64,000 bases of DNA, taken from positions 22,334 through 86,333 of the forward strand of contig NZ_DASPMM010000009.1 in the NCBI RefSeq assembly GCF_035627055.1, read 5' to 3'. This document shows positions 30,909 to 32,870 of this stretch, piece after piece. Within the stretch, counting starts at the first letter, position 1, and each line of letters opens with the position of its first letter. The notes under the pieces are model-generated. The model did no database searches, had not been told where the DNA came from, and saw only the letters and a program-made list of their open reading frames with translations. Position numbers and translations under genes: made by a program. The DNA comes from Brevundimonas sp. GTDB lineage: Bacteria; Pseudomonadota; Alphaproteobacteria; Caulobacterales; Caulobacteraceae.

Positions 30909-32870
30909 ATGAACATCGCCGTCACCCCGCCGACTACCCCCGAAGAGCCCAACGTCGACCTGGCGCTCAAGGACGCCCGCGATCAGGTGATGAAGGAGAC
31001 CGGCGCCATCCCCACCGGCGAGCGCGCCGGCTCCCGCAAGGTCTATGTCGCCGGCGAACTCTACCCCCAGATCCGCGTCCCCTTCCGCGAGGTCGCCGTC
31101 CACCCCAGCGCCAATGAGCCTCCGGTCACCATCTACGACTCCTCCGGCCCCTACACCGACCCCACCGTCACGATCGACATCACCAGGGGCCTGCCCAAGG
31201 TCAAATCCAGTTGGCAGCTCGACCGCGGCGACATCGCCCCTGTGGCGAGCCCCCGCGACGTCCGCCCCGAGGACAACGGCCACGCCAGCGGCAAACACCT
31301 CGCCCCCCGCTTCGACACCAGCAATCACCGCGTCTTCAGGGGCGTCCCGGGCCGCCCCGTCACCCAACTCGAATACGCCCGCGCCGGCGTCATCACCCCC
31401 GAGATGGAATACGTCGCCATCCGCGAGAACCTGCGCCGCGAGCAGGTGAAAAGCGCCAGTGCTGGTGAGCCCGACGCCGCCCTGCTCACTAGCACTGTCA
31501 CTGTCACCCCCCGCGACGGCGAGAGCTTCGGCGCCGCCATCCCCGACTACGTCACCCCCGAGTTCGTCCGCGCCGAGATCGCCCGCGGCCGCGCGATCAT
31601 TCCCCACAACATCAACCACCCCGAGGTCGAGCCGATGATCATCGGCCGCAACTTCCTGGTGAAGATCAACGCCAACATCGGCAACTCCGCCGTCCTCAGC
31701 TCCGTCGACGACGAGGTCGACAAGCTGGTCTGGGCCACCCGCTGGGGCGCCGACAACGTCATGGACCTGTCGACCGGCCGCAACATCCACAACATCCGCG
31801 ACTGGATCATCCGCAACTCCAGCGTCCCCATCGGCACCGTGCCCATCTACCAGGCGCTGGAGAAGGTCGGCGGCGTCGCCGAGGACCTGACCTGGGAGGT
31901 CTATCGCGACACCCTGATCGAACAGGCCGAGCAGGGCGTCGACTATTTCACCATCCACGCCGGCGTCCGCCTTCCGTTCATCCCCCTGACTGCTGAGCGC
32001 GTCACCGGCATCGTCTCCCGCGGCGGCTCCATCATGGCCAAGTGGTGCCTGTCCCACCACCGCGAGTCCTTCCTCTACGAGCATTTCGCCGACATCTGCG
32101 AGATCATGCGCGCCTATGACGTCAGCTTCTCACTGGGCGACGGCCTGCGCCCCGGCTCCATCGCGGACGCCAACGACGAGGCCCAGTTCGCCGAGCTGCG
32201 CACCCTCGGGGAGCTGACCAAAATCGCCTGGGACCACGGCTGCCAGGTCATGATCGAGGGCCCCGGCCATGTGCCGATGCACAAGATCAAGGCCAATATG
32301 GATGAGCAGCTGAAACACTGCCACGAGGCGCCCTTCTACACCCTCGGCCCCCTGACCACCGACATCGCCCCCGGCTACGACCACATCACCAGCGCCATCG
32401 GCGCGGCCATGATCGGCTGGTTCGGCACGGCCATGCTCTGCTACGTCACGCCCAAGGAGCACCTCGGCCTGCCCGACCGTCAGGACGTCAAGGACGGCGT
32501 CATCACCTACAAGATCGCCGCCCACGCCGCCGACCTCGCCAAGGGCCACCCCGCCGCCCGCCTGCACGACGACGCCCTCAGCCGCGCCCGGTTCGAGTTC
32601 CGCTGGGAAGACCAGTTCAACCTCGGCCTCGACCCCGAGACAGCCCGCAAATACCACGACGCCACCCTGCCCAAGGAGGCCCACAAGACCGCCCATTTCT
32701 GCAGCATGTGCGGCCCGAAATTCTGCTCGATGAAGATCAGCCAGGACATCCGGAGGGATGCGCAGGCGCAGAACGACGCCGGCGGCTCGCTGGCGGAGGC
32801 GGAGGCCGGAATGGCGGAGATGAGCGCGAAATTCCGGGCCGGCGGCGGGGTGGTGGAGGTGAAGGTCTAA
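30909..32870 (+). CDS. thiC: Phosphomethylpyrimidine synthase
   Basis: [69 protein letters not shown]. Confidence 0.99.
31445..31508. repeat. Palindromic element, family D, in frame within thiC
   Basis: CAGTGCTGGTGAGC (31457-70) and GCTCACTAGCACTG (31484-97); same arms as 63267-63352. Confidence 0.75.

Follow-up and report, generated by a model that had tools for sequence, protein, structure and literature searches.

The window analysed here is a 64-kb stretch (64,000 nucleotides) of Brevundimonas sp. contig NZ_DASPMM010000009.1, and it contains thiC, the gene for phosphomethylpyrimidine synthase, which carries a 64-nt palindromic repeat inserted in frame in its coding sequence. The window belongs to a soil-metagenome contig (ENA ERZ27257321, k141_37095, 111.8 kb), is of high GC content (~70-75% around an island of 57-61%) and is assigned to Brevundimonas, its ThiC being 88-93% identical to those of named Brevundimonas. 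The initial annotation of this DNA had described the thiC mRNA as riboswitch-controlled, and a thiamine pyrophosphate (TPP) riboswitch aptamer scoring above the Rfam gathering score does lie in the leader (Table 1). Two Pfam domains were identified in the protein, PF13667 at residues 41-109 and PF01964 (radical SAM HMP-P synthase) at residues 152-612, the latter matching profile positions 1-419 of 420, that is the full length, with 614.6 bits. Against the solved ThiC structures (PDB 4s2a/3epm) the window protein gives E = 0. Once the insert is masked, it is 95-99.5% identical to the proteins of empty alleles, i.e. those with no insert, and a rough Nei-Gojobori dN/dS of thiC outside the insert, calculated against 10 relatives, is ~0.14-0.21. 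By these measures, purifying selection acts on thiC outside the insert, and the gene appears to be functional. A 632-amino-acid open reading frame (ORF) antisense to thiC (30186-32084, minus strand) was treated as spurious, such frames being typical of GC-rich DNA; it also stays open across the repeat.

On the coding strand, positions 31445-31508 read GGTGAAAAGCGCCAGTGCTGGTGAGC - CCGACGCCGCCCT - GCTCACTAGCACTGTCACTGTCACC, two inverted arms around a loop. The inverted repeat search returned arms of 19 nt each at 31452-31470 and 31484-31502, 84% complementary and spaced by 13 nt, with a core stem of 14 bp that includes one G-T pair. Folded as RNA, the palindrome reaches -34.2 kcal/mol (z = -4.5), a stability attained by 0 of 200 shuffled sequences, and as DNA its z score is -3.3. 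Sequence, repeat search and folding therefore agree on the 64-nt in-frame palindrome that the initial annotation had placed inside thiC, and the insert peptide given there is correct within the 653-amino-acid ORF. The flanks it named, RENL and DGESFGA, mark the right place loosely; more precisely, the insertion lies between RENLRRE and RDGESFGA. Where the empty allele L003 reads CAG TCC GCC CCC TGC GTC CGC, the window has CAG, 22 new codons and CGC. The insert makes up ThiC residues 181-202, and its translation is rich in Ser, Ala and Thr. Its GC content at third codon positions (GC3) is 0.68 versus 0.91-0.99 in the flanking thiC codons, and eight inserts at this site range from 0.55 to 0.80. 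Judged by codon usage, the insert is non-coding-like, which points to a non-coding origin. According to our reading of the left-arm consensus of the repeat family described below, the TGA in GGTGA and the TAG in GCTAGT close two of the three phases; the sole stop-free phase is the one reading VKSAS..., and the same phase is used in thiC. No T-tract or terminator-like site was found at the insert in a terminator scan, and Rfam holds no family for the palindrome, a permissive threshold giving only sub-threshold miRNA-precursor hairpins.

Comparison with orthologues identified the insert as an addition to a linker that is shorter in most relatives. Our orthologue set consists of 121 Brevundimonas ThiC clusters, made up of the 120 best database relatives and the window protein, and 80 of these clusters have the short form LRREQ[TSN]APC[IV]RDGE[DS]FGA. 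The Caulobacter crescentus ThiC (PDB 4s2a/3epm) aligns with the window protein end to end, with a 17-residue gap exactly at the insert. Aligning relatives had been proposed as a check on the insertion, and the relatives, Caulobacter and these 80 clusters, proved to have a short linker instead of a loop of the same length lacking the palindrome. When the insert is masked, the allele nearest to the thiC core of the window is the empty L003 (93.4% nucleotide identity), every insert-bearing allele being 87-91% identical to it, and the informative sites up to both insert junctions match L003 and not the insert-bearing relatives. Because these junction-flanking sites match L003, the window insert sits on an 'empty-type' background, without imported flanking DNA. 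On the same grounds, we reject for the window allele the possibility that recombination with a different insert-bearing lineage brought in the insert.

The receiving segment itself varies widely in length. Between the motifs IREN and TPEFVR, ThiC representatives have from ~4 to 41 residues: ~4 in one plant-type and one short-form ThiC, ~24 in the empty Brevundimonas alleles, 28 in E. coli (4 extra) and 36-39 in three distant long-form ThiCs. Of the 150 best 50%-identity representatives, about 39 start matching only at query residues 211-224; they include full-length ThiCs of 407-450 amino acids without the whole N-terminal region, and the Arabidopsis ThiC structures align only from residue 215. 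Since so many matches begin at 211-224, the insert (residues 181-202) lies just upstream of the universally conserved core. As judged from these alignments, the IREN-TPEFVR segment is a hypervariable linker of the ThiC family. An AlphaFold2 model of the window ThiC, built from a 26-sequence, all-Brevundimonas alignment, had a mean predicted local distance difference test score of 34.9 and was unusable for placing the insert.

The palindrome is one copy of a dispersed family, which we name family 'a'. Within the window, the sequence AGTGCTRGTGAGC has exactly four occurrences, which form two inverted pairs (31458+, 31484-, 63272+ and 63335-); the count expected from dinucleotide shuffles is 0.00. 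The second pair lies within a 94-nt hairpin at 63263-63356 (-66.7 kcal/mol, z = -6.35), in agreement with the earlier remark that an intergenic element near 63267-63352 has the same arms. We scanned one genome per GTDB species with a degenerate 18-mer covering all four arms. Clusters and inverted pairs were found only in Brevundimonas/Caulobacteraceae, and elsewhere there were scattered single hits in unrelated phyla; by our own estimate, ~280 chance hits are expected for the 18-mer in 596 Gb. In one B. vancanneytii metagenome-assembled genome, the 18-mer hits fall on six contigs. A hairpin-pattern scan of the JGI metagenomes added 25 further loci. The arms thus recur beyond thiC: the window has one further element with them, and the Brevundimonas/Caulobacteraceae DNA retrieved for this analysis has 45 copies of the same arm architecture, with the common termini GGTGAAR...YTCACC.

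The canonical long form of family 'a' is GGTGAARAGTGCTAGTGAGCAAGGGGTGAGC - loop - GCTCACYTCTTGCTCACTAGCACTYYTCACC, and short forms are without the inner stem. The thiC copy is built as a short form, with the unequal module order of arms that is also found in the intergenic copies of L011, L034, L035 and L141, and its right arm matches the left arm of the L065 copy in reverse complement (96% over 25 nt). Among the copies outside thiC, subsets of which were inspected by open frames, translation and GC3, every inspected member of family 'a' and of a second family, 'b' (see below), is intergenic. Open frames over the intergenic copies of L022, L066, L078, L141, L135, L150, L153 and L016 were set aside by translation and GC3 as spurious or merely beside gene starts. 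Four sets of orthologous intergenic sites, compared across Brevundimonas strains, have near-identical outer arms and differing loops or inner stems, and short and long forms both occur within one orthologous site. Such stable arms with changeable centres suggest arm homogenisation or repeated landing on resident elements.

The same figures bear on whether the insert could be a coincidental palindrome in an ordinary lineage-specific loop, or an assembly chimera. GC-rich DNA does yield many weak inverted repeats, which appear in the window as lower-ranked pairs. The four exact arm matches against none expected, the failure of every shuffle to fold as well, and the 45 family copies are all at odds with coincidence. 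Furthermore, Logan contigs from two different soil-metagenome runs contain the insert-bearing allele without a single difference; X1 covers 31000-31656 at depth 24 and X2 covers 31416-31596. Because the identical allele is present in two independent runs, it is not an assembly artefact, and the NCBI genome assemblies of B. lenta and Brevundimonas sp. R86498 contain analogous thiC inserts. We regard chance or artefact as ruled out by this evidence, with practically no probability left to it.

The thiC linker also carries inserts in other Brevundimonas lineages. Extra residues, 12-37 in number, are found there in 41 of the 121 clusters, and they fall into about eight classes. DNA was obtained for 13 thiC alleles, of which 12, including that of the window, bear an insert and one is empty. 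The 'a'-type inserts and the 'b'-type insert of L127 form one strong hairpin each, while those of L128 and L130 form only weaker, split stems; the minimum free energies of the inserts range from -29.9 to -87.4 kcal/mol (L124 -73.1, L125 -87.4) versus -12.1 kcal/mol at the empty site. The arms are built from the unit AGTGCT in the window, L156, L002 and L123, from GGGTCGA in L124, GTGGCGA in L125, GTGATTA/GTGGTT in L126 and GTGAATC in L129. Two of these thiC arm types were also found at intergenic loci of other genomes, with up to 100% identity over 25 nt. GGGGCGA-type arms, which form an intergenic palindrome of the window (Table 1), make up the thiC insert of B. lenta (L124) and are also present in intergenic elements of L022, L066, L115 and L153.

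Family 'b' is an unrelated repeat of ~40 nt with the consensus GCGCTCAAGCAGCGAGCGACCGCGTCGCGAGCGTTAGCGC, and it forms the thiC inserts of L127 and L128. The L130 insert is probably a decayed copy of the same family, and L128 may, in our reading, hold a remnant of a family 'a' arm upstream of its family 'b' element. The thiC cores of L125 and L127 are the most similar of the set (95.0%), and their inserts, from family 'a' and family 'b' respectively, are unrelated. A second in-frame site was identified near the N-terminus of ThiC in L123, L129, P0045 and P0077, where family 'b' is always read as AQxASDRVASxS, in the same reading frame as at the linker. In P0045 and P0077 the N-terminal copy is present and the main linker is empty. 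The proposal of the initial annotation that a repeat family is creating protein insertions in this lineage is therefore supported more strongly than it was put forward, by about eight linker classes and an N-terminal repeat, though ThiC is the only documented host.

The reading frames of these inserts also bear on whether they are translated at all. A compact, stable hairpin inside an essential-type coding sequence might be bypassed by ribosomes, or the RNA segment might be removed. Mobile GC-rich palindromes bypassed in translation are known, as in T4 gene 60 and the 'byp' elements of Magnusiomyces (yeast) mitochondrial genes, and like the thiC inserts they are mobile, hairpin-forming inserts in essential coding sequences. 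Those inserts break the frame and are skipped, whereas the thiC inserts keep the frame and have no stops: the 12 insert alleles seen as DNA, eight of them checked explicitly, are multiples of three and stop-free in the thiC frame. Read-through also holds for each of the 41 insert-bearing protein clusters, a figure that partly reflects ascertainment, only full-length ORFs having been retrieved. In addition, the start of the window loop resembles the loop of the L156 thiC insert, and the differences between them fall at third codon positions, as expected of translated sequence. We therefore consider an untranslated insert very unlikely.

Collectively, these observations lead us to assign a probability of about 85% to the following explanation: the segment is a copy of a dispersed, non-autonomous palindromic family of Brevundimonas, similar to repetitive extragenic palindromic (REP) sequences and REPINs, which landed in frame in thiC, was moved in trans and was retained in a permissive linker. 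A family 'a' copy, consisting of two inverted arms of ~25-30 nt built from 6-7-nt GTG-containing units around a copy-specific loop, would have landed just after the CAG codon of ...RENLRREQ, and the mobilising enzyme would act in trans. Selection would then act as a filter, under which such a copy would survive if the linker is naturally length-variable and lies ~10-20 residues before the universally conserved ThiC core, if the copy stands in the one left-arm phase free of stop codons, and if the net length is a multiple of three. Because the linker is permissive, the phase open and the length divisible by three, the insert would be translated as 22 residues replacing five, probably neutral in effect, and the enzyme is presumed functional. 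As the linker is occupied in other Brevundimonas lineages by other arm subfamilies and by family 'b', it would be a recurrent landing or retention site.

Several points weigh against this explanation. ThiC is the only protein host found; a search of a 5.8-billion-protein database with a chimeric profile for other proteins with repeat-encoded peptides gave one hit with E = 0.76, such short peptides being unable to reach significance. The 14-nt flanks of the 45 copies show no target-site duplication. A Pfam scan found neither a transposase nor a RAYT among ~44 of the 52 predicted ORFs of the 64-kb window, and PF01797 is absent from the gene tables of the 13 thiC loci. With no transposase or RAYT in the window, which was the extent of that search, mobility is deduced from dispersal only. 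The loops vary among copies with near-identical arms, unlike a plain copy-and-paste of the whole element. Nor is the thiC event a simple insertion, since every insert allele, as compared with the alleles of relatives, has lost native codons, the Cys codon each time among them. Finally, two linker classes named by their peptides, GEWRVAS and GEGRG, have a homologous core in common that is specific to thiC, and their arms differ in concert, a pattern that points to one old insertion with arm turnover rather than repeated insertion.

The evidence for separate insertions as opposed to a single old one is mixed. Separate events are favoured by the interspersion of insert-bearing proteins among empty ones; P0089 differs from the empty P0101 by three residues, and P0001 from P0051 by six. 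A single insertion in the thiC linker of an early Brevundimonas, inherited, spread by homologous recombination and overwritten in place at its arms and loop, is possible, though we consider it rather improbable. The overwriting would proceed through slippage among the short units, template switching between the arms, or short-patch gene conversion from dispersed copies, and the classes would be states of one locus. Such a history would account for the common core peptide TITL(A/H)DG(S/T) of the GEWRVAS and GEGRG classes. By hand alignment, the cores of L124 and L125 have ~70% DNA identity, and their arms differ by 2 nt per 7-nt unit in both arms (GAGGGTC/GACCCTC versus GAGTGGC/GCCACTC), and the TITL core was not found in the intergenic copies with the same arms. 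All 'a'-type alleles begin at nearly one bond, that between CAG, GAA or GAC and GTG, several alleles retain native S/T-A-P codons after the element, and all are without the Cys codon; orthologous intergenic sites likewise keep their arms and vary their loops. On the other hand, the flanks of the window insert match the empty-type L003 with no imported patch, and the family 'b' inserts are structurally unrelated to those of family 'a'. The junctions and deletions also vary, for the window keeps only CCC, L123 keeps TCC GTC CCG and L129 keeps GCC CCG ATC, and in L130 the insert lies between TA and LI. Moreover, arms that are 100% identical over 25 nt to intergenic copies of other genomes would require a so far hypothetical exchange between loci.

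A more speculative and somewhat doubtful possibility is that the thiC linker is actively targeted and not only tolerant. REP-like elements would land on, replace or rewrite each other there, a resident hairpin would attract more, and the arms would evolve in concert with the dispersed copies while the core persists, with no transposition of whole units; the stem may also be under selection as an RNA or DNA element within a riboswitch-controlled gene. If so, the linker would be a natural genus-wide record of bacterial palindromic repeat turnover.

Selection on the stem could also take a regulatory form, in which a stem-loop in the thiC mRNA (or DNA) tunes expression by pausing, RNase III/E cleavage or mRNA stability and the peptide is a tolerated by-product. 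The 'a'-type inserts are strong even in old-looking classes such as L124 and L125, with arms 93-100% complementary, and from class to class the two arms change in step. Roughly one third of the clusters carry an insert, and REPs elsewhere are believed to function at the RNA level (PMC3733652). Yet two thirds of the clusters have no insert at all and keep the ancestral short linker, and several alleles look decayed: no single long stem forms in L128 and L130, mismatches in the inner stem of L123 are uncompensated, and the window arms are only 84% complementary. Because the L128 and L130 inserts and the L123 inner stem look decayed, strong general selection for the stem is argued against. The lack of a T-tract, a terminator-like site and an Rfam match noted above also counts against a regulatory hairpin. 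The RNA runs contain only 19-25% of the sampled words of the region, and the window allele is not demonstrably present in them. An effect of the hairpin on pausing, RNase cleavage or mRNA stability is possible, while a selected regulatory hairpin as the reason for the insert seems unlikely to us.

Comparison with known repeats places family 'a' near several of them and within none. CIR elements of the same bacterial order are long hairpin-forming intergenic repeats, as family 'a' is, and are reported as strictly intergenic. Their defining feature is a central GANTC (CcrM) methylation site, and by this mark family 'a' is set apart, GANTC being found in only 2 of the 45 copies and not in the thiC copy. 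Compared with miniature inverted-repeat transposable elements, family 'a' has the terminal inverted repeats (GGTGA...TCACC, with full-length inverted arms), and the 14 nt on either side of the 45 copies show no consistent direct repeat of the target-site duplication kind.

An established case of in-frame palindromic insertion is that of the Rickettsia palindromic elements (RPEs; RPE-1 to RPE-10; Ogata et al. 2000, summarised in PMC10969869 and PMC3733652), with which the initial annotation had drawn an analogy. The analogy stands for the way of working, that is dispersal, in-frame insertion and empty orthologues, and does not extend to family membership. In both cases, dispersed palindromes lie in frame in conserved protein genes, add a short peptide and leave the ORF intact; loops or linkers are the places where they are presumed to be tolerated, and no dedicated transposase is known. 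The RPEs belong to Rickettsiales, however, and family 'a' to free-living Caulobacterales; RPE-1 is ~100-150 nt long and family 'a' 64-120 nt, with arms of repeated 6-7-nt units and a variable loop; and RPEs occur in many genes, whereas family 'a' is nearly all intergenic, with one gene hit repeatedly. The terminal CGTC tag of RPE-4/6 is absent from family 'a', and the two are separated here by tag and host.

Intragenic GTAG/CGTC REPs, often as inverted dimers, encode 20-30 amino acids in known ORFs (Di Nocera et al. 2013, PMC3733652), and such REPs are mostly intergenic and downstream of genes (PMC3733652). Different REPs occupy approximately the same recB site in two Xanthomonas species (PMC3733652), a direct precedent for the reuse of one site; the thiC linker, with about eight classes, has a much larger number. 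Neither ThiC nor Brevundimonas is mentioned in PMC3733652 or its text supplements. Family 'a' is without either tag, GTAG/CTAC being found within the terminal 20 nt of 6 of the 45 copies and a terminal CGTC being absent from the element. REP stems are 5-13 bp and the family 'a' arms are longer. In the CGTC-REP definition, the tag is followed by an 8-9-bp stem whose first bases are AT, a loop of 4-5 nt and a tail of 3 nt (PMC3733652), whereas the thiC element has 25-26-nt arms and a 13-nt loop. With the REPIN-RAYT system (Bertels & Rainey 2011, PMC3116915), family 'a' has in common two inverted arms with a spacer, a long hairpin, many intergenic copies, the lack of a target-site duplication, and long persistence with vertical inheritance at orthologous sites. 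It differs in having no GTAG, in spacers far more variable than the arms, and in a single arm that is not itself a palindrome. Of the single-copy RAYT gene (an IS200/IS605-type Y1 transposase) that the repeats flank in such systems, no example was found in the 64-kb window searched. Because the sequence features of RPEs, GTAG-REPs, CGTC-REPs and CIRs fail here and no RAYT is tied to it, we file family 'a' as a new untagged REP-like family.

The thiC case is thus a new repeat family and a new host gene within the documented kind of in-frame REP/RPE insertion, and what is unusual about it is how densely independent-looking states are gathered at one linker. With it, a free-living alphaproteobacterial genus, an untagged repeat family and a well-studied enzyme join the few cases of selfish palindromic DNA entering protein. 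About eight classes, at least two unrelated families and many empty alleles at one linker in one genus make a convenient natural system, useful for questions on how REP-like elements move, on whether their arms are homogenised between loci, and on whether a hairpin in a coding region has any cost or benefit. In practice, ThiC length shifts of 12-37 residues among close relatives can mislead orthologue clustering and annotation.

Table 1 Features of the thiC locus and related repeats. Coordinates refer to the window unless a locus is named.
Feature	Position	Strand	Details
TPP riboswitch aptamer, thiC leader	30737-30845	+	Rfam RF00059, 69.6 bits vs gathering score 54.3, full-length model match
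thiC (phosphomethylpyrimidine synthase, 653 aa)	30909-32870	+	ORF intact, insert read in frame; ORF listing, Pfam, PDB
Inserted palindromic element, short-form family 'a'	31445-31508	+	64 nt, arms from 6-7-nt GTG-containing units
Left arm GGTGAAA-AGCGCC-AGTGCT-GGTGAGC	31445-31470	+	Encodes (Q)VKSASAGE
Loop CCGACGCCGCCCT	31471-31483	+	13 nt; loops vary among family copies
Right arm GCTCACT-AGCACT-GTCACT-GTCACC	31484-31508	+	Encodes LLTSTVTVT
22 codons replacing 5 native codons ([TSN]APC[IV])	31446-31511	+	Versus L003 empty allele; net +51 nt, +17 aa
Intergenic long-form family 'a' copy	63263-63356		94 nt, second inner stem GGTGAGC/GCTCGCC, between GST gene and queG
Intergenic palindrome, (GGGGCGA)3-4 arms	15832-15963		Unit-built design; 97% over 29 nt to right arm of L124 (B. 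lenta) thiC insert
Three tandem family 'b' copies	46757-46885		44-nt period, consensus ~GGCCTCAAGCAGCGAGCGACCGCGTCGCGAGCGTTAGGCC; intergenic, between terminator-like hairpin and rpsA 3' end
N-terminal family 'b' insertion in ThiC	L123 10049-10084; L129 10049-10084		Proteins P0019, P0102, P0045, P0077
Orthologous intergenic family 'a' sets	L011/L132/L133/L134/L140/L152; L135/L143/L144; L131/L145/L151/L154; L007/L045/L150/L153

Other palindromic repeats are also present in the window, which holds at least five such families and about ten elements in 64 kb. Inverted dimers of CCGTCATCCTCGGGCTTGACCCGAGGATCAG are located at 28612-28750, 45684-45834 and 52490-52627, and their make-up, CGTC with a 9-bp stem that opens with AT, a loop of 5 nt and a tail of 3 nt, fits the definition of CGTC-tagged REPs (PMC3733652). 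Further long hairpins, of the type CTTCTCCCC..GGGAGAAGG, lie at 35507-35674, 15418-15563 and 18840-19021. DnaE2 is reported as a frequent REP host (PMC3733652); the window has a pair of imuB (IMS family) and dnaE2 (error-prone Pol III alpha) genes at 39896-44772 on the minus strand, and no strong palindrome was seen inside this dnaE2.

Directly downstream of thiC, positions 33000-34800 form the low-GC island mentioned above (57-61% vs ~70-75%), with an orphan ORF of 366 amino acids at 33106-34206 on the minus strand that has no Pfam hit. In L123, a reverse-transcriptase gene (RVT_1, 403 aa) at 12028-13239 lies directly downstream of thiC within the variable island, and nothing ties this gene to the repeat. 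In relatives, the gene content between thiC and dsbA differs and comprises a reverse transcriptase, AAA_13, Zeta-toxin/AAA_33, a HipA-like protein, a deaminase and a methyltransferase; the stretch looks like a variable island, possibly related to defence.

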